Of a stretch of DNA of 11,793 nucleotides, positions 1 through 11,793 are shown piece by piece (the stretch's first letter is position 1; each line of letters opens with the position of its first letter). Origin of the DNA: Spirochaetota bacterium (GTDB taxonomy: Bacteria; Spirochaetota; UBA4802; UBA5550). A program made the translations under genes and the position numbers. The stretch covers positions 1 to 11,793 of the forward strand of contig JBNKTL010000072.1 in assembly GCA_050298055.1 (NCBI GenBank). The letters are read 5' to 3'. The notes under the pieces were generated by a model, which saw only the letters and a list, made by a program, of their open reading frames with translations, did no database searches and was not told where the DNA came from.

Positions 1-3000
1 TCCGACTTTCTCCTCTTCGACCGGGACACCAGTGAGTGGATCATCGGGGAGACACTGGACGGGACCATACGGTTCAGGGTTTTCTCCACGGCCCCGCAGT
101 TTCGGGAGATCACCCGCTGGCTCCAGGGTGATTTCAACGGGGACGGGAGGACCGATATCGGCTTCTATTCAAAGACCGACAACAACTTCTGGATCGGCGA
201 GGCAACACCCTCGGGGTTCAGGTACAGGATATACAACAACCTCTCCTACGGCCCGGAACCGGACCGTGTCCTCAGGACGCCCCTTCCCCGGGACGAGGTG
301 AAGATCGAGGAGAGGAGCGGAGTCATATCAGGCAGATCAAAAACAGCCATCATAAAATACACATACGACGCCAATTACCACACCGGCAGGGGGGAGATCG
401 TCTTTCCCGGCGACTTTACCGGAAGCGTCGGACCGGAACTTCTCATCTACAAAAAGAAGGAGAACGCCCTCTATCATAAAACCGGGAACGCCGGCATCAC
501 GGGCCCCGTGATCACGGGTATCGACCTCCATTCGGAGAAGATCACCCTCCTCAACGGGGGAAAACCGGTAAAGTATAACGGACGGGATGCTGTTTTCTAC
601 AGGGAGAAGGAGACGGGGCTTTTCGGGGGGACCACCTACAGGTATTATATTGTCCGTTACGATTCTGTTTTTGAGAAGAAACTTATGGCCGCCCCGGACG
701 GGACAAACTTCAATCCCGGGGAGAGCCTCTCCGCCTTTGATGGCTTTGACGGGAGCGGGAAAAAGCTTATGGTGCTGGATGATACCAGTGCAGTGCCGGG
801 ATTTATCCTTCATGACGGAAACAGTACCCAGCCGTACACAATCGATGACAACGGCGGACTGGATTTTACCCTCATAAAAGACAACAGGAACAGGTACCGC
901 CTCTTCGCCGGACGCTTCACCGTCAGCGAACCGAATCCCGCGCAGGTCCTCATTGTTGACATGACCGGGCCAGAGCATAAGTGGTACCTGGGGAATATAT
1001 CGGGCACCGCCGTTTCATTTCATCAGTTGACCGGCAACCCGTCATTTGCAGCGGAAGGATACAGGGGGAACTACCATGTCCGGGCCGACGGGATTATCGT
1101 CTATCCCACACTGACAAATGCCCTCCGCTTCCATACAATTGAACTGGACGGCCTTTCCGGCTCCGAAAGCGTGGACCACTTCTCATTCAACTCCCTGGAC
1201 GCGGGAGTCACCTTCAACAACGAATACGACCACCTGGGAAATCCCGTGTTATATGACAACGGAGTTGTCAAAACTCTTAAACTTGAAACCCGGAACCCGG
1301 AACTTGTAACTTTAACCCCCGACGGCACAGCAATCTTCGAACATAAAATAAACCGTCCCGACTTCCTGGTGGATGAAAACTACACCCCCTTCCGCTGGAT
1401 ACAGGGTGACTACAACGGCGACGGGAAGACCGACATCGGGATCTTCCACCTCAAAGAGCCGGAGTGGTACTTTGCGGTAACACAGGGGACCGTCCCCGAC
1501 ATGGTCCACCGGGTGAGAAACGGCATCGGGGGGACCTACGAGTTTGAATACGAGAACTCCACCCGCTTCGACAATACCGGTGATGACGACATCCCCGACC
1601 TTCCCATGAACTACCGCGTCTGTACGAAGCTCACCATAGAGGACGGACAGGGAAACAGGGCCTATACGAAATATGAATACAGCGGCGGATACGCCTTTTC
1701 CGCCTTCATCAACGGGTACAAGGAGACCGACTATTTCGGCTTCAGCGAATTCAGGACAATCGACCCCTATGGGAGCCGGACCATCAGCCTCTACAACACA
1801 ACACCCTACGCCGACTTCAGGATGAACAGGGCCCTGGCGGGGGCGGTCAAAGAATCCCGGTTTACAGGCAGTGATAGGATTGAATATTCACGCACGGAGC
1901 ATGAGTATAAAATTCATGAAATAGTTACAAGTTCCAAGTTACAGGTTTCAAGTTTTCTGGTGGAGCCGGTTAAGGTTACCAGGTATATGAAGGGGGTTCT
2001 CACCGAGACCAGGGAGTCGGAGATAGTTTTGACGCAGGGTAAGTACGAGATGGAGAGCAAGACGGAGTCGGTGACGGACCATTACGGGGACGGGGTCCAT
2101 TCGGCGGTGACGGTCTCTTCATATTCTGAGTTTGAGAACATCGGGGTCACCAACGAGATGAGGCTGGTTTTAAAGCGGAACCTGTCAGGCACATCATACG
2201 AGACCACCTCCACCTATGAATACGACGGCAGGGGGAACCTCACCGGTGAGAGGACCTCCTCCACGGGAAGCAACCGGTATTCTGTGGCGGATCGGGTCAT
2301 GGAGTATGAATACGACGGATACGGGAACAGGATACGGAGCAGGAACAGGAGCGGGAGCCCGTCACGGGTCACCGAGACCTTCTATGACGGGGAGCTCTTC
2401 CAGTTCGTGAGAGAGGAGAGGAGCCGTCTTGACAGGGGATATCTCTCCACCACCTACGTCATCAACTACGGCACGGCCTTCGGGGCCCCGGAGCGGAAGA
2501 CCGGCCCCAACGGGAACAGCACATACTTTGAATACGACGGCTACGGCAGGCTCTCCCGGCAGAGGGGAGACACGGAGAGCGGGACCGAGACCTTCACGGA
2601 ATACAGCTACACGGAGACATTCCCTCTCAGCGGAAAGGTGACGCAGTTCACCGGGACCGGCGACCCCGCCATTGAGACCCGGATCTTCGCCGACGGCATG
2701 GGGAGGGCGATCCACAGCATAAGGAGCGGCCTGGATGAGCCGGGGAAACACTACACAAAGACAGGCCTCATAAAATATGACTCCCTGGGCCGTGTGATCA
2801 GCAAGAGTCAGACGTCCTGGGTCACCGACGACGAGATCGACCGTTTCGTCCCCAACTTTTTCGCGAAGCACCCCACCCTCACGGAATATGACGCTTCCGG
2901 AAGGGTGAAGAAGATAACCCTGCCCCGGGCAGAGGGGGAGGAGAGGGAGACCTCCATAAGCTACACCTACAACGATCCCTGGGAGACCATGGAGACCCAC

Positions 3001-5598
3001 AGCGTGGGGAGGAGTAAGAGGACAATTAAAAATGCCCGGGGACAGGTGCTCTATGTTTATGACCGGGGGACCGGTGATGACGGGACCACGGTGAGTGCGT
3101 CCATGGGGTTCGCGTATGATGTGGCGGGGAACCGGGTTAAGAAGATGGACTTGAATGGCGCGGGGATGAGTTTGGAAGTTTCAAGTTCCATGTTTCAAGT
3201 TGGGAGAAAAGACAGTTCGGGGAATAATGTTGCCTGCTGGGGATATGACGCTTTCGGGCAGCTGAGAGAGTCCAGCGATCCCGACCTGGGGTATACGGGG
3301 CTCGGGTATAATTCCTTCGGCGACGTTGTGTCGAGGCGTGACGCCCTGAACCGGATAACGAGAATGTCCTATGACAGGCTGGGGCGGATGACAGAGAAGG
3401 AGCTTCCCGGCAGAGAGGGACGGGTGAGGTACAGCTACGACAGCCTCCGGGGCAGCGACAACGCCCGGGGCCGGCTTGTTTCAATAGATGATTCCGCTCA
3501 AAGAAAGGAGTTTAGTTACGACAGGTTAGGGCGGATTAAATGGGAGAGAAGGGAGTTACAAGTTTCGAGTTCCAAGTTACATGGTGAAGAGTTTGTTACT
3601 GAATTTGAGTATGATCTCCTGAACCGGAAAAAGACCATCCGCTATCCGGAAGACCCGGTGAACCATATCTCCGTGACCGCCCGGTACGTCTATAACGGCA
3701 TGGGGATCAGCGGAGTGGCCGCCGATACGGGGCATACGATCACGGCGCTGGTGAGCGGTGTTGACTACAACGAGTTCGGCCAGATGACCGAGGTGAGAAG
3801 GGGGAACGGCACAACCACCGCTTACACCTACGACATCAAGGGGAGGCTCATGAACCTCCTGACCACCACAACGGCCAACGGGGTGACCCGGAACATTCAG
3901 AACGTTAACTACAACTTCAGGATCGACAACAGCATCGCCTCCTCGGAGAACAGCCCCGACCTTGACACCGACGGCGCCCACGCAAGCACAGTCCGCTACG
4001 AGTACAGCTACGACGGCCTCAACCGTCTTGTTGACGCACGGGGAAGCTACGAGAAGATCACCGCCGACGAGACGATCACCAAAGACTACCGCCGCGGCTT
4101 CGGTTATGCCGCAAACGGGAACCTTACCGAAAAGAGGATCTACAATCCCGCCACGGGTACCGTACAGGACCGCTGGACATACGGCTACGCAAACCACGCC
4201 GTCACCGGAATCGACACAACAAAACATGGTTCCGGCCGTTTCACAATGCGCTACGACGCAGCGGGGAACATGATTTACCAGGAGGATGATGAGAAAGATA
4301 GACGTAAGGAGATGGTTTATGACTCCTATAACAGGATCAAAGAGGTTACTAACCCGGACAAGAGAAGAGACAATGTTGTGGGGCAGTACTGGTATGATGA
4401 CCAGGGGTTTAGGGTTCGGAAGATAGCCAGAGCCCCCCAGCCCCCAGGGGGGGCGCAAGATGATGTGACCGTGGAGGTGCTCTATCCCTCAATGTATTTT
4501 GGGCTGGAAAGGCAGCTTAATCATGGCGGTCATGTTATTAACAATACTACCTATGCTGTGAACAATGTTTATCTTAACGGAGTAAGAATTGCGGCGGTGC
4601 TCCCCAACGGACATGCCAGATATTATTTGACAGACCAGGTTGACTCTGTAAAGGTTGTTGTGGATGACAGTGGTCTCCCAATTACAAGATTCGAGTATTT
4701 GCCCTATGGGGAGACTTGGTTCAGTGAAGAAAAGACGGGTCTTGAAGAGGAACATAATCCCAAGTTTAATTCACAGGAGTTAGATAAGGAGACAGGGTAT
4801 TATTTCTACAACGCAAGGCATTATGACCCGGAGATCGGGCGGTTTGTGACGGCGGACAATGTGATTGATGGGGAGTTGGATACTCAGGGGTGGAACAGGT
4901 TTTCTTACACTAAAGGGAATCCAATAATATACAAAGACCCTACAGGGCATTTTGGTGATCTCTCTACACATATAAAAAATATTATTGATTTTGTACAAGG
5001 AAATGAGGGTACGGTTGGAGGAAAAGTTAGAGAGTATTTAAGTGGTACTAGAAATAAGGAAAATAATGATACGAATAATAAAAAGCAGGCTATTGAACTA
5101 CAGAAAGCAAAAGGGAAAAGCAATTCAATCTCTTCATCTGAATTAAGTAAAAAGAGAATAAAACAATCAGACCCAAAAATAAATATTAATGATAAAGAAA
5201 TGGGGAAGAGAGGTTGTTATTTTCGAACTATCCAATCAAAAGCAGAAGAATATGTAGGTAAAAATCTAACAGCTGACCAGATTAATGCTGCTAAAAAGAA
5301 ATTACAATCTGGAAAAAATCCTCCAGTAAATAAACGAATGAGAGTAAAAAATCCAGAAGCAGTAATTAATGATGCATTTAATAGACTAGGGAAAACTAAA
5401 GTTACAGGTACTGTTGGGTGGGGTGGTAAAAAAGGACAGAAGCCAACATCAACAATTATTCGAGGTAAAACAAAAGTTGGTGAACATTTTAAATCAGCTG
5501 ATTCAAAAGGAAACGTTATATGGGATCCCGGTGGAAATATACAGACAACAAATGATGAAACAATTCCAGTATTTATACATGATAATGAAAAAAAATAA
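1..5598 (+). CDS. Large Rhs/YD-repeat polymorphic toxin, Tc toxin B-C fusion-like (FG-GAP/VCBS repeats, TcdB middle-like region, YD repeats, Rhs core, variable C-terminal toxin); 5'-partial
   Basis: Frame 1 is open from base 1 (SDFLLFDRDTSEWIIGE...WLQGDFNGDGRTDIGFY), so the GTG at 298 is not the true start. A second FG-GAP-like repeat WIQGDYNGDGKTDIGIF lies at ~1396-1446. TcdB-midN-like motifs PDMVHRVRNGIGGTYEFEYENST and YEYSGG..E..YFGF follow. There are many YD repeats (YEYDGRGN, YEYDGYGN, YDRLGR, YDAAGN) and an Rhs core ELDKETGYYFYNARHYDPEIGRF...NPIIYKDPTGH (DPTG at 4936-4947). Confidence 0.93.
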   Translation, partial: SDFLLFDRDTSEWIIGETLDGTIRFRVFSTAPQFREITRWLQGDFNGDGRTDIGFYSKTDNNFWIGEATPSGFRYRIYNNLSYGPEPDRVLRTPLPRDEVKIEERSGVISGRSKTAIIKYTYDANYHTGRGEIVFPGDFTGSVGPELLIYKKKENALYHKTGNAGITGPVITGIDLHSEKITLLNGGKPVKYNGRDAVFYREKETGLFGGTTYRYYIVRYDSVFEKKLMAAPDGTNFNPGESLSAFDGFDGSGKKLMVLDDTSAVPGFILHDGNSTQPYTIDDNGGLDFTLIKDNRNRYRLFAGRFTVSEPNPAQVLIVDMTGPEHKWYLGNISGTAVSFHQLTGNPSFAAEGYRGNYHVRADGIIVYPTLTNALRFHTIELDGLSGSESVDHFSFNSLDAGVTFNNEYDHLGNPVLYDNGVVKTLKLETRNPELVTLTPDGTAIFEHKINRPDFLVDENYTPFRWIQGDYNGDGKTDIGIFHLKEPEWYFAVTQGTVPDMVHRVRNGIGGTYEFEYENSTRFDNTGDDDIPDLPMNYRVCTKLTIEDGQGNRAYTKYEYSGGYAFSAFINGYKETDYFGFSEFRTIDPYGSRTISLYNTTPYADFRMNRALAGAVKESRFTGSDRIEYSRTEHEYKIHEIVTSSKLQVSSFLVEPVKVTRYMKGVLTETRESEIVLTQGKYEMESKTESVTDHYGDGVHSAVTVSSYSEFENIGVTNEMRLVLKRNLSGTSYETTSTYEYDGRGNLTGERTSSTGSNRYSVADRVMEYEYDGYGNRIRSRNRSGSPSRVTETFYDGELFQFVREERSRLDRGYLSTTYVINYGTAFGAPERKTGPNGNSTYFEYDGYGRLSRQRGDTESGTETFTEYSYTETFPLSGKVTQFTGTGDPAIETRIFADGMGRAIHSIRSGLDEPGKHYTKTGLIKYDSLGRVISKSQTSWVTDDEIDRFVPNFFAKHPTLTEYDASGRVKKITLPRAEGEERETSISYTYNDPWETMETHSVGRSKRTIKNARGQVLYVYDRGTGDDGTTVSASMGFAYDVAGNRVKKMDLNGAGMSLEVSSSMFQVGRKDSSGNNVACWGYDAFGQLRESSDPDLGYTGLGYNSFGDVVSRRDALNRITRMSYDRLGRMTEKELPGREGRVRYSYDSLRGSDNARGRLVSIDDSAQRKEFSYDRLGRIKWERRELQVSSSKLHGEEFVTEFEYDLLNRKKTIRYPEDPVNHISVTARYVYNGMGISGVAADTGHTITALVSGVDYNEFGQMTEVRRGNGTTTAYTYDIKGRLMNLLTTTTANGVTRNIQNVNYNFRIDNSIASSENSPDLDTDGAHASTVRYEYSYDGLNRLVDARGSYEKITADETITKDYRRGFGYAANGNLTEKRIYNPATGTVQDRWTYGYANHAVTGIDTTKHGSGRFTMRYDAAGNMIYQEDDEKDRRKEMVYDSYNRIKEVTNPDKRRDNVVGQYWYDDQGFRVRKIARAPQPPGGAQDDVTVEVLYPSMYFGLERQLNHGGHVINNTTYAVNNVYLNGVRIAAVLPNGHARYYLTDQVDSVKVVVDDSGLPITRFEYLPYGETWFSEEKTGLEEEHNPKFNSQELDKETGYYFYNARHYDPEIGRFVTADNVIDGELDTQGWNRFSYTKGNPIIYKDPTGHFGDLSTHIKNIIDFVQGNEGTVGGKVREYLSGTRNKENNDTNNKKQAIELQKAKGKSNSISSSELSKKRIKQSDPKININDKEMGKRGCYFRTIQSKAEEYVGKNLTADQINAAKKKLQSGKNPPVNKRMRVKNPEAVINDAFNRLGKTKVTGTVGWGGKKGQKPTSTIIRGKTKVGEHFKSADSKGNVIWDPGGNIQTTNDETIPVFIHDNEKK
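1280..1314 (-). repeat. Intragenic degenerate heptamer array (reverse orientation)
   Basis: AACTTGA AACCCGG AACCCGG AACTTGT AACTTTA; reverse complement of the NCRRGTT unit seen at 1920-1954, 3174-3201 and 3551-3585. Confidence 0.7.
1920..1954 (+). repeat. Intragenic degenerate heptamer array
   Basis: AATAGTT ACAAGTT CCAAGTT ACAGGTT TCAAGTT. Confidence 0.75.
3174..3201 (+). repeat. Intragenic degenerate heptamer array
   Basis: GGAAGTT TCAAGTT CCATGTT TCAAGTT. Confidence 0.7.
3551..3585 (+). repeat. Intragenic degenerate heptamer array
   Basis: GGGAGTT ACAAGTT TCGAGTT CCAAGTT ACATGGT. Confidence 0.7.
4948..5598 (+). other. Variable C-terminal toxin domain (~216 aa) of the Rhs protein, papain-like (peptidase C39/DUF261-like) fold predicted
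   Basis: Begins after DPTG and has lower GC. Motifs: KQSDP...GKRGCYFRT (Cys codon 5215-5217), GEHF (His 5485-5487) and VIWDPG (Asp 5524-5526), in the Q...C...H...D order of C39-like cysteine peptidases. Confidence 0.6.
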
Positions 5599-5617
5599 CA
5601 GTTAAGGATTGATGTTG

Positions 5618-6295
5618 ATGAAGAGAAATATATTTCTGTTATATTTAATATTATGCTACATATATCCAAATAGTATTGAGGCAGAAAATAAATTAGGTTT
5701 AACTGTTGAAATTTATAAAAAATTATGTGGCGTATGGTATTTGAGAAATACATATGACACAGAATCTGAATACTCATGGGGTAAAGCTAAAGAAGTAAAT
5801 AATGGATCAATAATTATTGATTTAGGAGCAGATTCACCTTTTTTTTCTGCTGGTCCAATGGGTGATTCTGTAATTAATAGGATTTATAAAAAAAATAATG
5901 ATGTTTATATAATAAATATTCTATTTAGAAATAATAAAAATTATAGTTTAAAGGTTTCAATTATTGATGACAATACGATTATATTTCATGAAATGAAATG
6001 GTTTAAAGAAATTCCATTATTGTTAAAAGATTATGGGGAGAAGAAAAAATATTTTAAAATAAGCGGACCTTCTGAAAAATATTATAAACCAAAAATACCA
6101 AATCTTCGTATTAGGTCGAAACCTACTTTGAAAGGCATAGCGTTTCGTTTGTTGAATAAAAGTGAAAAATTATTTTTTTTATCAAAAGGCAATAAAGAAA
6201 AAATTGGAAATGCAAATGGAAATTGGATAAAAGTCTTAACTGAGAAAAATGAAATAGGTTGGTGTTTCGATTACTATCTTGAAAGACTTAAGTAG
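5618..6295 (+). CDS. Putative cognate immunity protein: exported protein with C-terminal bacterial SH3 (SH3b) domain
   Basis: Directly follows the toxin stop and is very AT-rich. The N-terminus MKRNIFLLYLILCYIYPNSIEA looks like a Sec signal peptide. The C-terminus NLRIRSKPTLKG..L.K.EKL..GNWIKVLTEKNEIGWCFDYYL is a typical SH3b pattern. AAGGA at 5604-5608 favours ATG 5618 (5609 TTG and 5612 ATG are alternatives). Confidence 0.8.
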   Translation: MKRNIFLLYLILCYIYPNSIEAENKLGLTVEIYKKLCGVWYLRNTYDTESEYSWGKAKEVNNGSIIIDLGADSPFFSAGPMGDSVINRIYKKNNDVYIINILFRNNKNYSLKVSIIDDNTIIFHEMKWFKEIPLLLKDYGEKKKYFKISGPSEKYYKPKIPNLRIRSKPTLKGIAFRLLNKSEKLFFLSKGNKEKIGNANGNWIKVLTEKNEIGWCFDYYLERLK

Positions 6296-6348
6296 ATTTA
6301 TTTCCAGCCCTGGCCACTTTCGATAAAAATAAAATAGATTTCTGAAAA

Positions 6349-6364
6349 TAGCAGATATCTGCTA
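6349..6364. repeat. Perfect 16-bp palindrome TAGCAGATATCTGCTA
   Basis: The sequence equals its own reverse complement and lies where the AT-rich toxin/immunity cassette ends. Confidence 0.8.
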
Positions 6365-6410
6365 AATTACCCGTTCAGGCCGGTAGAAAAAAAGTCCCCA
6401 CAACAAGCCA

Positions 6411-6663
6411 GGCGACTTCCGCGGATTTTTTTGGCCGGAGCGTTGCCGGCGTTACCCTGCTGATGAAGGTTTTATAACACCATAAAAGTATGGGAACACG
6501 AAAAATTTAATTCCACAGGGCAACGCGGAGGCCAAGCCCCTTTCCCTTATTGAGCGTCCCCCAACTTAAACGCCCTACCTAATTAATTGGGAGAGGGATA
6601 AGCCGAGGGGGTTTGGGGGAGCGGCTAAGGGAGAGGGGCGGAAAAAATTCCGTGGAAGTCGCC
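6411..6663 (+). repeat. Nested inverted repeats forming a three-way junction (structured RNA or ssDNA element)
   Basis: Outer stem 6411-6430/6644-6663 (GGCGACTTCCGCGGATTTTT / AAAATTCCGTGGAAGTCGCC). Arm 1: TTGGCC 6431-6436/GGCCAA 6530-6535 and GCGTTGCC 6440-6447/GGCAACGC 6519-6526. Arm 2: GCCCCTTTCCCTTA 6536-6549/TAAGGGAGAGGGGC 6626-6639 and TCCCCCAA 6557-6564/TTGGGGGA 6613-6620. Confidence 0.85.
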
Positions 6664-6713
6664 GGGATGCGGGGGGAGAGGTTTTTTTGTTGGTGTTGAG
6701 TTTTTGCGGGGAG

Positions 6714-7073
6714 TTATTTTTTCTTTGGTTTGTTCTTTTCCCTTACCTTATTCTTCTCCACTAACGCATTGATGAAATGAAATATTGCGTTCTGGTCCCT
6801 GGTTGGAAGTTCCTCAATGACCCTCACTTTCTTTAAAATTTTGTATGAGACATCATCTGACTTTTTCTTTCCTGGAGATTTTGCTATTCCGAGCAGTTCT
6901 TCATCGGAAACATCAAGAGCATGAGAGAGTTTTTTCACTTTATCAAGGGATGGTCTCTTGACATGATTTTCATAATACTCAATGACTCTTTGTGTGACAC
7001 CGGCAATGTTTGCTAACTGTGTCTGGGTGTAGCCCTTCTTTTTTCGTATTTGCTTTAAATTTGTGCCGAACAT
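6714..7073 (-). CDS. XRE-family helix-turn-helix transcriptional regulator (119 aa)
   Basis: MFGTNLKQIRKKKGYTQTQLANIAGVTQRVIEYYENHVKRPSLDKVKKLSHALDVSDEELLG is a classic Cro/C1 HTH_3 pattern. The ATG at 7073 has an AAGGA RBS 8 nt upstream. The longer track start (7181) overlaps the promoter region. Confidence 0.9.
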   Translation of the reverse strand: MFGTNLKQIRKKKGYTQTQLANIAGVTQRVIEYYENHVKRPSLDKVKKLSHALDVSDEELLGIAKSPGKKKSDDVSYKILKKVRVIEELPTRDQNAIFHFINALVEKNKVREKNKPKKK

Positions 7074-7146
7074 TTCATATTCCTTTTTCATAAAATATTT
7101 ATACCATGAATATTTCAACTTTTTTGAAAATTCAGGTAAAAAGATG

Positions 7147-7176
7147 TTGACAGTACACGAATACGTGTAATATTTT
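7147..7176 (+). promoter_or_regulatory. Putative sigma70 promoter for the primase-helicase/recombinase operon with an embedded palindromic operator
   Basis: Perfect -35 TTGACA (7147-7152) and -10-like TATTTT (7171-7176, 18-nt spacer) or TAATAT (7168-7173). The spacer holds the inverted repeat TACACG-AATA-CGTGTA (7154-7169). Confidence 0.65.
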
Positions 7177-7256
7177 AACATTATATTTTGTGTAAAAATG
7201 TTCTTGATTCAAATGAATTTTCCTTGACGCGTTTTCAGACCGGGGCGGTTTTCACG

Positions 7257-7292
7257 AAAAAAGCCCCGATTCTTTTAAAATCGAGGCTTTTT
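7257..7292. terminator. Intrinsic terminator-like hairpin, potentially bidirectional
   Basis: AAAAAAGCCCCGATT-CTTTTAA-AATCGAGGCTTTTT; GC stem flanked by an A-run on the left and a T-run on the right. Confidence 0.7.
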
Positions 7293-7360
7293 GAGGCAAT
7301 CCCGAAGGAGAGCCGAATTAACTTGGTAACTTAATTCTTACCCTCTCCTTCGAGATTGTC
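7257..7360 (-). ncRNA. Candidate ~100-nt antisense RNA opposite the leader of the replication gene
   Basis: Two adjacent hairpins (7258-7292; 7297-7312/7343-7358 with inner GAATTAA/TTAATTC). Each stem's internal mismatch is C-A on + and therefore G-U on the minus strand. The minus strand ends in a U6 tract. No convincing minus-strand promoter was found. Confidence 0.4.
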
Positions 7361-7391
7361 AATTAATTTTTTGATAAAAAGGAGATCCCCC

Positions 7392-9662
7392 ATGTCCCAG
7401 GAGGCAATAGACAATCTGCACAAGAACTGGCAGAAGAACCTCTTCGACAACTATGACGCCATAGAGATATTAAGGGACCGCCGGGGGATCCGGACGGCGG
7501 GGACAATAAAGGGGCTTGAGCTGGGACTTGCCGAAGTCCCCGGGGAAGAGGGCCTCACGCCGGTGGTATACAACTCCCTCAAGTCCTTCGGCCTTACGGA
7601 TGAAGGTATCACCGGCATGGTCTCCCTGCCGCTCCGGAGAAGGACGGGGATGATCAGTAACTTCTGTTTCCTGAGTTTGAACGGCAAGGGTGACAAACTG
7701 ATCCGAAAGGGGGGCGTGATCAACGGGAAGGCCTTCAGGGCGTTCAGGAGCATTCTGGTGACGGACAATCTTCCGGACTTCTTTTTGTACTTCCAGAACG
7801 TGAAGGAGAACATCGTTCCCCTCATCGAGTCGGAAAGGATGCCGGTAGATTTTGCCGAGGCCCTGGTCCACTCCGAGGTTGAGGAGATCATACTGATAAA
7901 TGAGTCCCCCTACTGGGAACCGCTCCGGGCCAGGCTTTCAAAGTGCGACGTTAAGGTGTACGGGATAAGCCTTCCGGAGGGAAAAGACATCGGGAGCTTT
8001 CTCAGGAAGGCCTCCGGGATGAAGCTTGTTGCCTACCTTGAGGGTGAAAAGGCGAAGCTGGTTAAACAGAGAGTGGAGGAGAGCGGGACAGAGGAGAGTA
8101 AGGATGATGTGAATGTCCCGGAGTACCTGAAGCTCACTGAGGGCACGGGAGAGATCGCCTTCACAGGCGAAGACCGCTCCTACCGTGTCCGTGGCTTCAA
8201 CCGTGACGGCTTCGAGAAGATCGTCCAGATGTCCCTTGAAGTGGACGGGAGGGTGTTTCCGGACAAGGTGGACCTCTCCCGGAGCCAGGGCCGGGGACGA
8301 TTTGCCAACATTGCCGCGGCTGAATTTGAGATGAGCCCGGAGACGGTGAGGAACGACCTCACATACATCTACAAGACCCTGGATAAAATGCAGGACCAGC
8401 GTTTCCGGGAGAAGTCGGGTGAGATAAACCGTGATGTCCACGTCATCACCTCCGATGACGAGAAGAAGGCCATAGACCGGCTCACAAAACGGGACTTGCT
8501 GGACGAGATGCTCATGAAGGACACGGAAAGACTGGGCTACGTTGAGGAGGAGGTAAACAAGAAGCTTTTCTATCTCTCGGCAAGTTCACGTCTCACGGGA
8601 AAGCCGTTGTCTGTCCTGGACATATCCCCGCCGGGGACGGGGAAGAGCTTCGGGCTCTCATCCGTCATGGACCTGGTGCCTTCCGATGAACTTTTAAAGT
8701 ATTCCCGTCTCTCCCCCAACGCCCTCTACTACAAGTCCGGGGAGGAGCTGAACGGCCGTGTCCTGTACATCGAGGAGCTGGTGGGTATGGAGGAGTCCCT
8801 GGAACCTATCCGGATGCTCCTCTCCTCCGGGGAGCTTGCGGTCTCGGTGGTGGAGAAGGACCCCCGGACGGGGAACCTCCGGACCGTTGAGAGGCGTATC
8901 CGGGTTGACATTCCCATCCTCTCAAGCGGTGTCCGGGACATCTTTGACGAGGAGACCCTCTCCCGGTTCATCTTAACGTACAACGACGTAACACCCCGGC
9001 ACATGGAGCGGATACTCAAGGCCCAGGCCTACCGGTACTCCCTGGAGGGTGAGAAGGTTTCCCTGCAGAGGGAGAGGCTCTTAAAGAAGCACCGGGACAT
9101 CCAGAAGGTCATGGACGGGAGTATCGTTGTGGTGAACCCCTACGCCGGGAAGATCATGGTGAACCCGCACCTTCACATCGTCACACGGAAGCAGGAGCAG
9201 TATCTCCGGCTCATCTACAACATAGCCTTTCTCCGCCAGCATTCCCGGGAGAAGAAAAAGGAAACCGACAGGTACGGAAACGAGTTCCGGTACATCGAGG
9301 TGAGACGCGAGGACATCGAGACAGCCAACGGGATAGCCTCCCATGTGTTCCGCTTTTCCCGGGGAGACCTTACCAAGAGGCTCCATGACGCCTACCGGAC
9401 AATTGAGGAGTACTGCAAAGACCAGGTGAAGAAGAAGCGTATTGGCCTCTATGAGCTGAAGTTCTCCCGGAGGGAGATACGGGAGTACGCTGACTGGAAG
9501 TTGACCACGTCAAAGGAGCTCTTGGATGAGCTTGAGAGCCTGGAATACATAAGGAAGGTCCGGGGCTCCCAGGGGAGGAAGTACCTGTATATGCTCTCTC
9601 CCTGTGACAGTGGGGGCGGAACAGGCAAGGATTTACGGCTTCTGGACCCTGAAAACCTCTAA
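7392..9662 (+). CDS. Mobile-element primase-helicase-like replication protein (degenerate DnaG/TOPRIM-like N-terminus, P-loop AAA+-type ATPase, C-terminal winged helix), 756 aa
   Basis: RBS AGGAG 7380-7384 precedes ATG 7392. DnaG-core-like LRDRRGI...IKGLELG, SLPLRRRTGMISNF and LPEGKDIGSFL are present. Walker A SPPGTGKS (8625-8648), Walker B VLYIEE and an arginine-finger-like DEETLSRF follow. The C-terminus FSRREIREYADWKLTTSKELLDELESLEYI is wHTH-like. Confidence 0.78.
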   Translation: MSQEAIDNLHKNWQKNLFDNYDAIEILRDRRGIRTAGTIKGLELGLAEVPGEEGLTPVVYNSLKSFGLTDEGITGMVSLPLRRRTGMISNFCFLSLNGKGDKLIRKGGVINGKAFRAFRSILVTDNLPDFFLYFQNVKENIVPLIESERMPVDFAEALVHSEVEEIILINESPYWEPLRARLSKCDVKVYGISLPEGKDIGSFLRKASGMKLVAYLEGEKAKLVKQRVEESGTEESKDDVNVPEYLKLTEGTGEIAFTGEDRSYRVRGFNRDGFEKIVQMSLEVDGRVFPDKVDLSRSQGRGRFANIAAAEFEMSPETVRNDLTYIYKTLDKMQDQRFREKSGEINRDVHVITSDDEKKAIDRLTKRDLLDEMLMKDTERLGYVEEEVNKKLFYLSASSRLTGKPLSVLDISPPGTGKSFGLSSVMDLVPSDELLKYSRLSPNALYYKSGEELNGRVLYIEELVGMEESLEPIRMLLSSGELAVSVVEKDPRTGNLRTVERRIRVDIPILSSGVRDIFDEETLSRFILTYNDVTPRHMERILKAQAYRYSLEGEKVSLQRERLLKKHRDIQKVMDGSIVVVNPYAGKIMVNPHLHIVTRKQEQYLRLIYNIAFLRQHSREKKKETDRYGNEFRYIEVRREDIETANGIASHVFRFSRGDLTKRLHDAYRTIEEYCKDQVKKKRIGLYELKFSRREIREYADWKLTTSKELLDELESLEYIRKVRGSQGRKYLYMLSPCDSGGGTGKDLRLLDPENL

Positions 9663-9684
9663 GCAGACGATTAAAATACCACAA

Positions 9685-9786
9685 CTTATCGGCTTATCGG
9701 AAACTTATCGGATTGAATCCGATAAGTGTAACCCCTGAACGGTTCAGGAGTTAGCCTCAAAAAAGGGCCACTTATCGGGTTATCGG
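9685..9786. repeat. Iteron-like CTTATCGG array with central palindrome; candidate replication origin
   Basis: CTTATCGG at 9685, 9693, 9704 and 9771; GTTATCGG at 9779; inverted CCGATAAG at 9719; near-palindrome TAACCCCTGAAC-G-GTTCAGGAGTTA at 9729-9753. Confidence 0.8.
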
Positions 9787-9868
9787 AGGGGGGTAATATA
9801 TGTTTTTTTCTCACAGGAAAAAAGAGGGCGAAGCTTTGCCCTGAGAAAGAGGAAAAGGAGGAAGAGGG

Positions 9869-10195
9869 ATGAAAGAGAGGATAGCTGACAGGATAGAAAA
9901 GTACATGAACCGGATGAGATTAAAGGAGGTCCACAGGGCCATAGAAAAGATCGATGTCAGGAGGCGTGACCTTGAGGAGTTTGTCTTCTTCATGGACAGA
10001 AGGAAGGGGAGAAAGAGGCCCTGGGACCTTTCACAGATCACGGAGGATGACGGAACGGCCTATTACCGCCACCTGAAGGAGAAGGACAAAGCCTCCGGGG
10101 TTGAGAGGAAGCTAAAGACGGTGAACTCCTTCCTGGACTTTGCCGTGAAAATGAAATGGATAGAGAGAAGGCCCTGGGGTGATAATTTTTCATAG
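9869..10195 (+). CDS. Small protein resembling a stand-alone phage-integrase N-terminal SAM-like (core-binding) domain
   Basis: RBS GGAGG at 9857-9861. The pattern DLEEFVFFM..ITEDDGTAYYRHLKEK..ASGVERKLKTVNSFLDFAVKMKWIERRPW parallels the N-terminal domains of the two downstream recombinases. There is no catalytic domain. Confidence 0.7.
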   Translation: MKERIADRIEKYMNRMRLKEVHRAIEKIDVRRRDLEEFVFFMDRRKGRKRPWDLSQITEDDGTAYYRHLKEKDKASGVERKLKTVNSFLDFAVKMKWIERRPWGDNFS

Positions 10196-10206
10196 GAGGT
10201 AAATCA

Positions 10207-11100
10207 ATGGATTTAAAGACATCTGAGCTTTTAAGGAAATTCGAGGAATACCAGGTCCTTAAGGGACTGAAGGCAAAAACAGTTTACTACAAGCTCCGGA
10301 GCCTTAAGAACTTCTTCGGTTTCATAAAGGGACTGCCTGTTCATGTGACAAAGGAGGATATCCGGAGCTATCTTGAACATATGGGAAGGAAGAAGCTCTC
10401 TTCGGTGAGTTACGGAAAGACCGTTGGCCATATCCATGAGTTTTACGATTTTCTTCTTCATGAGGGGCACGTTCTTCTTAACCCCGCCGTCTCCATCGAG
10501 AGGCCGAAACAGGAACCGGTACACAAAAGGCGGGGCTTTACGGTGGAGGAGATCAGGAAGATACTGGATGCCGTCCCGGACACTCCCCTGGGAAGGCGTG
10601 ACAGGGCGGTGATCGACCTTCTCTATTCAACGGGAATGAGGGTGAGCGAGCTTTCCGGCCTGGACATGGAGGACGTTGACCTCAGGGAGAGGGAGATATC
10701 CGTACTTACCGGTAAAGGTGGAAAGGAGAGGATCGTCCCGGTGGGTGAGGAGGCCTTGAAAAGCCTTGAGGTCTATCTTGACGAGAGGTACTTAAAGGTT
10801 GAGGAAACGGACAGGAAGGCCCTCTTCCTGAGCTTTCACGGGGGGAGGTTCCGGCCAAAGGAGATAGCTGACATGATCAGGAAGTACAAGAGAAGGGGGG
10901 GAGTAGGTTTCAGAGGGTTGACCCACGCTTTCCGTCACTCCTGCGCCGGCCATATGCTGAAAAACGGTGCACCGGTGGAGATGATACGGCGGCTCCTGGG
11001 ACATGAGTATCTCTGCTCAACTGAGAGGTATACCGGGGTGTCGGATGAGGACTTAAAGAGAGTTCACGGGAGGACGTTTAATGAGAGATTTGATGTATGA
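10207..11100 (+). CDS. Tyrosine recombinase, XerC/XerD-like (297 aa)
   Basis: AGGAGG RBS at 10194-10199. Full catalytic set: LYSTGMRVSE (R), GKGGKER (K), HAFRH (H-x-x-R), LLGH (H), TERYT (Y). Confidence 0.93.
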   Translation: MDLKTSELLRKFEEYQVLKGLKAKTVYYKLRSLKNFFGFIKGLPVHVTKEDIRSYLEHMGRKKLSSVSYGKTVGHIHEFYDFLLHEGHVLLNPAVSIERPKQEPVHKRRGFTVEEIRKILDAVPDTPLGRRDRAVIDLLYSTGMRVSELSGLDMEDVDLREREISVLTGKGGKERIVPVGEEALKSLEVYLDERYLKVEETDRKALFLSFHGGRFRPKEIADMIRKYKRRGGVGFRGLTHAFRHSCAGHMLKNGAPVEMIRRLLGHEYLCSTERYTGVSDEDLKRVHGRTFNERFDV

Positions 11101-11793
11101 GTTCATCGAGGAGGCGGGAAGAAAGGGGTTCAGGGAGAAGACTTTGAGTGATTACCGGAGGAAACTGGCCTTTTTTTTCGACTTTCTTGAGGAAAACTAC
11201 CCGGACGTCAGGGAGATCACCGGGATCACTCACGCCGTTGTGAGGAGCTACGAGAAAAACCTGGCGTTGAAAAGGGACCGAAAGGGGATGCTCATATCAA
11301 ACAGCAGGAGGGGGAAGTATTTATCCACCCTTAAGGGTTTCTTTGCCTGGCTCCAGAGAGAGGAGAGGATATACCGGAGTCCCGCTTCTAACGTTGCCCT
11401 TCCCCGGGAGAGAAAGCCGGTGATCAAGGATGTTCTCACGGTGGAGGAGATGGATTCCCTCTTAAAGTCCGCCTCCGGGGACACCATGAGGGCCATCCGG
11501 GACAGGGCAGTGATGGAGCTCCTTTACTCCACCGGTATCCGGTCTGATGAGCTCTGCAACATCCGCATGGACGACATAGACCTGAATGAGAGGGTGCTCT
11601 TTGTGAGAAAGGGGAAGCTTGACAAGGAGAGATACGTCCCTTTCGGAGAGAGGGCCAAACACTGGGTGGAGAGGTATATCGGGAAGGTAAGGCCCCATGT
11701 GGCTGAAAATGACGCTCCTGAGCTCTTTGTGGCCTTCCTGAGAGGGAGGAAGATGAGCACCTCGGCCCTTTATGACATCATCAAGTACCGGGC
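11081..11793 (+). CDS. Second XerC/XerD-like tyrosine recombinase, 3'-partial (absent from the supplied ORF track)
   Basis: Manual translation from ATG 11081 (RBS GGAGG 11069-11073; 20-nt overlap with the previous gene): MRDLMYEFIEEAGRKGFREKTLSDYRRKL...RDRAVMELLYSTGIRSDELCNIRMDDIDL...VRKGKLDKERYVPFG, open to the window end. Confidence 0.92.
   Translation, partial: MRDLMYEFIEEAGRKGFREKTLSDYRRKLAFFFDFLEENYPDVREITGITHAVVRSYEKNLALKRDRKGMLISNSRRGKYLSTLKGFFAWLQREERIYRSPASNVALPRERKPVIKDVLTVEEMDSLLKSASGDTMRAIRDRAVMELLYSTGIRSDELCNIRMDDIDLNERVLFVRKGKLDKERYVPFGERAKHWVERYIGKVRPHVAENDAPELFVAFLRGRKMSTSALYDIIKYR

Follow-up and report, generated by a model that had tools for sequence, protein, structure and literature searches.

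An rhs locus from Spirochaetota and a family of probable integrative elements that replace the tips of polymorphic toxins

A toxin gene beside a replication and recombination module

By what route Rhs and CdiA proteins gain new toxin tips has stayed unsettled ever since displacement models were published in 2009–2016. For rhs, a circle carrying a core fragment and a tip was proposed to insert by one crossover and shunt the old tip downstream (Jackson et al. 2009, PMC2935791), and a "fossil record" model was put forward for cdiA (Ruhe et al. 2016, PMC4927057); in the parts of these papers available to us, the required circle is left unidentified. We investigated a spirochaete locus at which a sequence-only reading had proposed a module that can excise, replicate as a circle and exchange the tip of the neighboring rhs gene. 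We conclude that this locus probably represents an integrative mobile element that has its attachment site in a polymorphic toxin gene, within the conserved portion preceding the toxin tip.

The window, that is, the whole stretch of 11,793 nt analyzed here (1–11793), is an entire contig (C72), so the sequence past 11793 could not be read. Its seven ORFs were scanned with Pfam and NCBIfam. The predicted Rhs toxin gene was found as an ORF at 1–5598 (+ strand), open at its 5′ end, with RHS/YD repeats and an Rhs-associated core. The locus has the hallmarks of an Rhs polymorphic toxin: YD repeats, a core ending in PxxxxDPxG, a low-GC variable tip, and an adjacent putative immunity gene. The host Rhs body, the target gene (1–4803, +; 5′ end truncated by the contig start), comprises FG-GAP-like and YD repeats and the 5′ part of the core. 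The variable C-terminal tip (4948–5598, +) is low in GC and is followed by an immunity-like, low-GC ORF (5609–6295, +) with a hydrophobic N-terminus and a C-terminal SH3_3 domain, in agreement with the putative immunity gene of the earlier reading. A Cys/His/Asp pattern judged by eye would make the tip a peptidase or amidase, and there is a weak lead to DUF261; the tip matched no family in Pfam or PHROGs and no homologue among sequences of near length, and its atlas matches were all below 0.9.

Between the convergent immunity and regulator genes lies a partly conserved non-coding stretch (6380–6700). No SymE gene was found here, as every ORF from 6296 to 6713 is shorter than 50 aa. The regulator (6714–7181, −) was identified by the same scans as an XRE/cI-type repressor, as previously read, and is divergent from the replication gene; its true start is probably further in than the ORF start. 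The replication gene (7392–9662, +) encodes a 756-aa "primase-helicase", for which structure and profile matches supported a DnaG-like N-terminal fold (E = 2.6e-8; family profile, E = 4.5e-64) and an MCM-type AAA+ fold (E = 9.3e-10; the first helicase fold, from 27 close sequences, gave pLDDT < 50 in the ATPase domain, which was refolded with 70 diverse sequences). The folds thus bear out the earlier name, but only in part: the ATPase motifs are intact, whereas the zinc finger is missing and the catalytic acidic primase motifs are degenerate. Among 27 primases of the window's clade, the CHC2 zinc finger was present in 0/27, D replaced the toprim E in 27/27, and DxD was absent, and from these residues the primase of this clade looks degenerate. 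Downstream, the iterons noted earlier correspond to six TTATCGG repeats, all at 9686–9786 (1.66 expected per whole window; six reached in 1/200 shuffles), which form a candidate origin. In relatives, the array has the same position and layout, and its sequence is element-specific.

The domain scan also recovered the SAM-only protein and the two tyrosine recombinases. Int1 (10207–11100, +) has a complete R-K-H-R-H-Y set. Int2 (11081–11793, +) is truncated by the contig end, with R and K present and complete orthologues elsewhere; none of the 199 source-assembly contigs contained its 3′ end. Domain and residue comparison suggests that the SAM-only protein (9869–10195, +) is a remnant of a third, catalytically incomplete recombinase; the third recombinase gene is either SAM-only or lacks K, H, R and Y. 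No capsid, terminase, relaxase or conjugation families were found in the Pfam/NCBIfam scans of the seven ORFs, as the earlier reading had also stated, and the three window proteins submitted to PHROGs had no match. An Rfam scan of the window returned seven matches, all far under gathering scores.

The recombinases score best against Xer-type models, and the 6380–6700 stretch folds strongly (z = −6.7; 0/100 shuffles as strong), two observations that would suit host XerC/XerD acting at a dif-like site in the folded 6411–6663 stretch, as in pdif modules or IMEX elements. We regard this explanation as very improbable. Int1 reaches only 207 and 205 bits against XerC and XerD equivalog cut-offs of 329.6 and 335.15, closer Xer-like host candidates are located on two other contigs (C7 and C16), and an E. 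coli-type dif consensus had no match in the window at three or fewer mismatches. Conservation of the stretch with a paralogous element on contig C78 is limited to 6511–6646. The strong fold was confirmed, but 6411–6663 was rejected as a dif-like attachment site, and the junctions map instead inside the toxin core, most likely at 4804 in the window.

Occupied and empty sites in relatives

The evidence that such elements enter toxin genes comes from relatives, in three occupied/empty comparisons of non-isogenic strains, two at E. coli rhs and one at Enterobacter cdiA, with insertions of 7.9–16.7 kb. E. coli JNE120442 differs from 21F61 and JNEC-KY177 by a clean 7,928-bp insertion in rhs with flanks 99.7–100% identical; SCU-113 and STW0522-31 differ from Ec-U10 by 16,714 bp, also in rhs; and the Enterobacter plasmid pJBIWA003_2 differs from p3442-FRI-1 by 15,370 bp at the VENN codons of cdiA. 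In every empty record, the tip that is an orphan in the occupied strain sits in frame on a full-length toxin. These are true empty sites, and different tips occur on the same toxin body, as had been predicted for a module that replaces the tip of a resident toxin. The comparisons show that insertion is site-specific at a fixed base, that the element's tip becomes fused in frame to the host's giant delivery protein, and that the old tip and its immunity gene are left as an orphan on the far side of the element.

Within every lineage that was mapped, a single fixed, codon-aligned base marks where the orphan tip following the recombinase begins. The identical base was found in all six post-element junctions examined from four E. 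coli strains, as well as in one Shigella record and two Lonsdalea junctions, and two loci of different genera (G263 and G409) share the junction RF/VT. Dyads at the junctions were weak in most cases (at least 6 of 8 in 4/14, in rows that are non-independent and with one anchor, that of G114, set by eye). For one of the three E. coli tips tested, no empty-site strain was among the matches listed (best 40 of 57), and for the tips of G354 no DNA-level match to a toxin body was obtained. The Ralstonia locus was not a clean case.

Tips could also be exchanged by homologous recombination as in the model of Jackson et al., with a RecA crossover between cores and the primase-recombinase module a passenger once caught between two of them. 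Long core homology with no module close by is seen in many orphan arrays (for example, G354 clusters), long-core orphans occur in L082–L084, and unequal crossover could yield the identical tandem copies seen in G263, G061 and pJBIWA003_2. Against this, identity to the empty site starts at +1 in the right junction, with 0 nt upstream, and extends for just 2, 15 and 13 nt downstream in the left junction, in the three comparisons. Crossovers confined to 2–15 nt where the shared sequence begins argue against homologous recombination, as do the reuse of the same base across strains and genera and the conserved catalytic residues of the recombinases. We consider this explanation improbable and site-specific integration the better account.

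The element in the source genome and across its family

In the source genome, contig C184 joins a non-rhs element end to window sequence at exactly 4804, and one read contig of run X1 begins at 4804. This position is a codon boundary in the Rhs core (YY/FYNARH), and 4804–4810 (+) is the putative left junction (attL). Judged from these sequences, the element most likely starts at 4804 and would extend beyond 11793; for the window's own element, the junction evidence consists of this joint between element end and tip, with C184 unbridged to C72 and the right end unassembled. With a start inside the rhs core, the window's own tip and immunity gene would be cargo, and the 3′ core up to DPTG (4804–4947, +) would be element-borne and restore the reading frame, by analogy with the occupied/empty pairs. 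The rhs 3′ fragment and immunity gene are then carried as the sequence-only reading supposed, but the carried tip is the one already on the giant Rhs of the window. The C78 element has a different tip and an 8-of-8 dyad at its junction. A match of 4405–4487 to contig C50 is a dispersed hairpin repeat with further copies on C29 and C10, and was rejected as an element end. C184 was scanned for promoters with no hit, which leaves the idea of a promoter serving orphan immunity genes without support on that contig.

The source assembly comprises 199 contigs with breaks at these elements, and the G263 duplicate lies on a short-read contig; the neighborhood and the tandem copies might accordingly be collapsed or looped repeats of metagenome assemblies. 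Such an artefact is hardly credible, as complete E. coli chromosomes and plasmids show this layout too, as do spirochaete genomes of 3–5 contigs, and the tip-immunity stretch was recovered from run X1 with 0 differences. The source sample is probably X1; runs X2–X4 contain only 0.10–0.11 of the words. In X2, cover reached parts of the Rhs body but missed the tip, a lack that is no evidence. Read contigs of X1 across the host Rhs body had depths of 9.05 and 9.29, and depth was raised at the tip, where tandem copies would give the same signal as an excised circle. No joint back to 4804 was listed among X1 reads in the stretch covered by the search, outside which the element's end lies.

Relatives were gathered by profile searches of whole genomes (a related-locus search gave only three loci), and the family comprises 1,114 clusters at 50% identity (E < 1e-30). 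Genes of the family routinely bear the annotations "xerC" and "DNA primase". The layout is common to relatives in spirochaetes, enterobacteria and betaproteobacteria, where tandem elements lie within rhs, cdiA and further genes for giant toxins. As anticipated, homologues of the 756-aa ATPase are enriched beside Rhs: a core lay within 10 kb in 12/29 other genomes, compared with at most 0.93 expected, and 17/29 had none within that distance. Second cassettes and element-end junctions exist, and the insertion sites are fixed ones inside toxin genes. The proposed coupling to Rhs holds, but the family also targets cdiA and non-Rhs giants. In G114, G354 and G345, tandem copies have nearly identical backbones but differ in their tips.

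A selfish satellite or island might use the toxin core as a safe landing site, its frame restored with the last captured tip and diversification a by-product that benefits neither element nor host. The mechanism would be the same, and only the purpose differs. Some family members do lie away from toxins (G057, G032, G264, G034 and G134 had no toxin in the fetched flanks), and defense cargo occurs among them, with ThsB-TIR and Nmad2 genes in place of a toxin in G057. Several of the toxin bodies next to elements have been annotated as broken, and enterobacterial copies carry SymE or RelE addiction genes, SymE in the E. coli and Lonsdalea relatives. Nevertheless, all junctions mapped fall on a codon boundary and supply a tip together with its immunity gene, and at least three unrelated toxin classes (Rhs, CdiA, and HINT/M23-tipped giants) and several sites within Rhs are targeted, which suggests repeated selection. 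We therefore judge the purely selfish account unlikely, though it deserves more weight than any other alternative.

Under the favored reading, in which the element serves tip exchange, the circular form would run from the element end and site through the rest of the core, toxin tip, immunity gene, XRE, primase-helicase and repeat array to the recombinase(s). Excision, replication as a circle and cell-to-cell transfer are what we infer from this gene content. Excision would restore the old tip or expose the next tip of a tandem array, and both insertion and excision would be catalyzed by the element's own tyrosine recombinases under XRE control. More speculatively, the helicase may load at the repeat array and amplify the circle, which would yield tandem copies. 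Two small circular records hold such units (no typed replicon, typed non-mobilizable); they may be collapsed tandem repeats, and the Shigella record resembles one repeat unit of the SCU-113 array. Because transfer genes are absent, movement would occur by transduction, by transformation or on plasmids. Neither the window protein nor the E. coli module matched a collection of 50,697 phage records, and packaging or capsid-redirection genes were found neither in the seven window ORFs (right end missing) nor in complete E. coli units. The element would persist because its carriers gain a new weapon, able to kill kin that lack the element, and still retain the old immunity gene.

Relation to known systems and meaning

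Phage satellites (P4-like, PICI) are small elements with an integrase, a regulator and a primase-helicase, RIT elements (recombinases in trio) share with the window a tandem of overlapping tyrosine recombinase genes, two or three in number, and rAID of Bacteroidales are recombinase-associated immunity arrays. The window shares the core genes of the satellites, but no capsid, terminase or AlpA genes were found, and insertion gives the target gene back a functional end that differs from the old one; helper-embedded PICIs do integrate inside a protein-coding gene (PMC10111431). Unlike RIT elements, the third recombinase gene here is incomplete or absent, many relatives have one recombinase, and a replication gene and cargo belong to the unit. 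XerC/D genes have been reported beside polyimmunity loci (Zhang et al. 2012, PMC3482391), and the likeness is a tyrosine recombinase beside toxin/immunity arrays; as far as the accessible text describes them, those arrays collect immunity genes, whereas here tip, immunity gene and machinery form one unit that enters a toxin gene. Relaxase and conjugation genes, expected of ICEs and IMEs, were not found in the seven window ORFs. Precise insertion at a fixed site, with occupied and empty alleles, is seen in the relatives, as in site-specific integrative elements.

The closest description concerns SymE-cHTH-Prim-Hel neighborhoods, mobile islands in which a Cro/cI regulator and a DnaG-primase/MCM-like AAA+ gene lie beside RHS and haemagglutinin genes (Kawano, Aravind, Storz 2007, PMC1891008). 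The window has the same DnaG and MCM-like AAA+ fusion and adjacent Cro/cI regulator, but no SymE and two or three recombinase genes; the sections of that account available to us describe the gene neighborhood and no integrase, boundaries, attachment site or tip exchange. Compared with the displacement and fossil-record models, as set out in the portions consulted, the circle proposed here would bring a recombinase of its own, cross over at a fixed point and carry a replication gene. Tip-carrying circles were thus already predicted in 2009, and nearby integrases had been noted before. In the literature searched, we found no description of this element class; Martinkus et al. 2026 may overlap.

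It is conceivable, and in our judgment nearly an even call, that these loci form an undescribed cross-phylum class of replicating integrative elements whose attachment sites evolved repeatedly in the conserved pre-toxin motifs of unrelated toxin systems (Rhs core, CdiA VENN, HINT/M23-tipped giants). Such elements would parasitize a host toxin-delivery protein to spread their own toxin-immunity pair, switch tips reversibly, and be a main origin of orphan arrays, which in many cases would be the scars that lost elements left behind. The tyrosine recombinases seem to need very little common sequence between partner sites, and the family offers a marker for finding unrecognized toxin classes. Since elements are carried by 56/5,426 complete E. 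coli genomes and matching empty strains exist, excision, integration and competition are directly testable. These elements provide a concrete vehicle and a base-precise site for tip exchange, which looks like the long-sought vehicle, and explain how a toxin tip can be replaced without loss of the old immunity gene.

Probable insertion at fixed positions in toxin genes

The element, a proposed mobile unit that would enter a toxin gene at a fixed base (4804 being the putative left junction in the window), lay within a recurring and often repeated gene order in relatives: toxin body (5′ part of the giant gene), tip, immunity gene, XRE gene, primase-helicase gene (hereafter helicase), one or more recombinase genes, a non-coding end, and an orphan (displaced) tip with its immunity gene. 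The sequence-only reading had proposed comparing strains for different tips on one Rhs body. We looked for empty alleles, which lack the element, by querying the last orphan tip for its occurrence fused to a body. Two of the three E. coli tips were present in fused form, so that occupied and empty E. coli alleles were found, with the old tip fused to the body in the empty ones. The 7,928-bp insert seen in JNE120442 was absent from strains 21F61 and JNEC-KY177 (2 of 3 full matches). The module was absent from Ec-U10 and, by annotation only, from JNE151685 (2 opened of 22 full-length rows among the matches listed, 50 records), and Ec-U10 differed from SCU-113 and STW0522-31 by 16,714 bp. Likewise, at cdiA, pJBIWA003_2 carried a double insert of 15,370 bp that was missing from p3442-FRI-1.

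The right junction was identical to the empty allele from +1 on, with an upstream match of 0 nt, and the left junction followed the empty allele past the site for 2, 15, and 13 nt in three comparisons; the crossover therefore fell within the opening nucleotides of the shared stretch. Homologous recombination between shared sequences would not be expected to cross over repeatedly at the first shared bases. As judged by comparison in relatives, insertion or deletion is precise and occurs at a fixed site, and the tip is replaced in frame, with the old tip and its immunity gene retained and copies accumulating in tandem. For the window's own element, two junctions were seen, the left one and that between element end and tip. 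We regard an integrative tip-swapping mechanism as likely, and the alternative that the toxin gene offers a "safe landing site" is compatible with it.

Within genomes, homology between a post-element orphan and a full-length body began abruptly, at a codon boundary. The junction lay between RF and VT in two genomes of different genera (G263 and G409), between YY and FYN in the window, far upstream in a YD-repeat in G216, at a non-Rhs site in G061, between VT and DPIG in E. coli, Shigella, and Lonsdalea, and between KN and AVENN in cdiA; other lineages appear, by sequence inspection, to use further core positions. The E. coli module was carried by 56 of 5,426 complete genomes, in which it occupied 200 places, every one on the chromosome; all five places opened (two loci) were inside rhs genes, and the core followed the element end for 44 nt or more in 38 of 40 among the matches listed (57 records). 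Dyads around a 6–8-nt spacer were found at some element-end junctions (8/8 on host contig C78 and at one Lonsdalea site), reaching 6/8 at 4 of 14 element ends versus 0 of 11 at body junctions and a frequency near 7% for positions drawn at random, which weakly suggests a site signal. At two loci (L082:17089-17101 and L002:3484), orphan tips that do not directly follow an element began at the post-element base after short unrelated sequence; these are possibly scars of deleted elements.

Tandem copies were near-identical in several genomes: G114 carried two 12.3-kb backbones (99.8% identity) with different tips after each, backbone identity was 99.4–99.9% in G354 and 94–98% in G345, and G263 and G061 had two identical units, tip included, followed by a different final tip. 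Two small circular records were composed of such units and could be collapsed tandem repeats.

Further copies in the host genome

A second cassette or att copy had been proposed as a check on the sequence-only reading, and second cassettes and junctions at element ends were both found. C78 carried a full-length helicase paralogue (74% identical). Ahead of it lie the end of a SAM-like gene, a non-coding end rich in GC, a tip and immunity gene that differ from those of the window, and an XRE gene; an incomplete recombinase follows it. On another contig, C184, a non-coding end related to that of C78 (86% identical over 236 nt) leads directly into the window's Rhs core, entering it at base 4804. 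The 77-nt overlap between C184 and the window equals the assembler word length (the same overlap was present at 62 of 398 contig ends), and C184 is therefore a second path into the core at 4804. A contig from read run X1, which is probably the source sample, began at 4804 and continued to 6562 with 0 differences at a depth of 14.9. Because of this contig and the C184 join, the window tip (core 3′ part and tip, 4804–5598) and immunity gene (5609–6295) follow both the Rhs body (1–4803) and an element end, a doubled context that fits a circle and a tandem copy alike. Other X1 contig depths, which do not equal copy number, were 9.05 and 9.29 for the body (two contigs), 17.2 for 9854–10330, and 24.6 for the Int2 end. 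Helicase paralogue fragments on C103 (62% identical), C113 (63%), and C155 (42%) indicate at least four element lineages in the host genome, and the summed read depth over the helicase was high because of variants.

The C78 tip (C78:950-3036, L091) was non-Rhs, its first 36 residues being 83% identical to a tip on C189 (L093); no full-length body for either was found in the host assembly, and the two tips point to an unrecognized polymorphic toxin class. The C78 immunity-like gene had five weak matches across four other contigs. At C44:43294-44127, a 3′ remnant of an XRE gene (86% identical to window 6713–6922) with a low-GC ORF adjoined genes that by eye were ammonium-transporter-like; the remnant probably represents the end of an element that has decayed. 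The right ends, which are long, GC-rich, and non-coding (L092:150-205, L091:850-902, and L001:6540-6600), had a common hairpin with TGTGGACA-like arms. In L001 and C184, TTGACA boxes lay about 110–150 nt ahead of the junctions, and a promoter scan of C184 gave no complete promoter.

Gene content of the element

The window spans all of contig C72, one of 199 in the host assembly, so that its sequence ends at 11793. ORF and domain scans recovered the same window genes as those listed from sequence alone. GC content was about 0.55 in the Rhs body, dropped to 0.24–0.35 across the tip and immunity gene, and was again about 0.55 in the helicase. The 756-aa helicase (7392–9662) had no match in Pfam, NCBIfam, or PHROGs; in structure comparison, its predicted models resembled DnaG (E 2.6e-8) and, for a model of pLDDT 89.7, MCM helicases (E 9.3e-10). 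The ATPase retains both Walker motifs (A and B) and the SRF arginine finger. In its 27-member clade, the toprim E is replaced by D, DxD is absent, and the CPFH zinc-finger motif was found in 0 of 27 members versus 36 of 67 distant relatives. Across the region corresponding to window 7392–8080, all 27 members have lost the CHC2 zinc finger and primase acidic motifs, with the DnaG fold and MCM-type ATPase intact; the clade may recruit a host primase or only bind DNA.

Int1 (10207–11100) has six of six catalytic residues, and the SAM-only protein (9869–10195) is a stub of a third recombinase, whose counterpart on C78 and in G411 is longer, yet also incomplete. Six TTATCGG copies were confirmed in the repeat array (9686–9786); arrays in G263, G409, G411, and E. 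coli held the equivalent position with a sequence particular to each, and no 7-mer was present three times in 6 of 14 intergenic regions examined. The proposed folded site with a dif-like core stood in part: the stretch folds strongly, but the core neither matched the consensus (E. coli type) nor was conserved. Part of the stretch (6530–6672) recurs in a distant element of G213 (L066:3997-4137), there between helicase and recombinase, and this segment appears by sequence to be a conserved non-coding motif. Heptamer tandem repeats also occur in frame within the Rhs gene in both orientations (1271–1319, 1923–1964, 3162–3203, and 3554–3594); a simple pattern search gave 21 arrays on 17 host contigs, 3 of them in the window, and those in the Rhs gene are probably a dispersed host repeat.

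In the proposed mechanism, the element's own recombinases would catalyse the reaction, the XRE protein (6714–7181, minus strand) would control the element, a free circle would form and replicate from the repeat array, and the element could be transferred passively. For autonomous replication, we consider the odds about even.

Distribution and standing of the family

The helicase family comprised 1,114 clusters at E < 1e-30 and 5,868 at 0.001. Within the phylum, 28 of 401 genomes carried it, host included, as did 9 of 101 close relatives, 36 of 72,556 plasmid records, and 0 of 50,697 phage records. The expected enrichment near rhs was borne out: an Rhs core lay within 10 kb in 12 of 29 other genomes versus at most 0.93 expected, kin not being independent. 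Among the remaining 17, four (G061, G114, G354, and G272) carried the element behind a giant protein that is not Rhs and ends in a PT-HINT or M23 tip, the same layout recurred on the short contigs of G393 and G107, and G411 had low-GC gene pairs of no assigned family; G078, G331, and G092 were on 7–8 kb contigs, G104 and G105 were read at unextended length, and no toxin was found in the fetched flanks of G057, G032, G264, G034, and G134. The non-Rhs giants (L043-L051 and L060-L061) had bodies without Pfam matches and small partners downstream, and their elements carry ParA and further genes; G061 and G114 showed two different junction types. The divergent family member of G057 (L072:6928-13973) had ThsB-TIR and Nmad2 genes in place of a toxin tip. 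Elsewhere, the layout occurred behind cdiA on Enterobacter plasmids and on Salmonella plasmids (for the latter, cdiA is deduced from the neighbouring cdiB, as the large gene itself is not listed), behind an FG-GAP giant in Janthinobacterium, and behind Rhs in Caballeronia; a Ralstonia locus was less clean.

In the portions of these papers available, a SymE-cHTH-Prim-Hel neighbourhood adjoining RHS and haemagglutinin genes (Kawano 2007, PMC1891008), recombination and duplication models (Poole 2011), XerC/D adjoining polyimmunity loci (Zhang 2012, PMC3482391), insertion with displacement and orphan regions holding integrase and transposase genes (Ruhe 2016, PMC4927057), and Rhs-associated integrases, whose role was not experimentally tested there (Steele 2017), are described. 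The accessible text of PMC11606950, PMC11278526, PMC6336857, PMC2530875, PMC4758244, and PMC13280938 nowhere describes the element. We found no description of site-specific tip replacement by a self-contained element in the portions seen of the open full-text literature, a scope outside which subscription papers and supplements (including the Zhang 2012 additional file) fall. The element's hardware is a variant of integrase-primase islands, a neighbourhood noticed in 2007, and that the family forms a distinct new class is slightly doubtful. The finding itself is real and extends beyond the window: site-specific tip replacement by a self-contained element answers a stated open question, and the tip-swapping mechanism is testable in E. 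coli.
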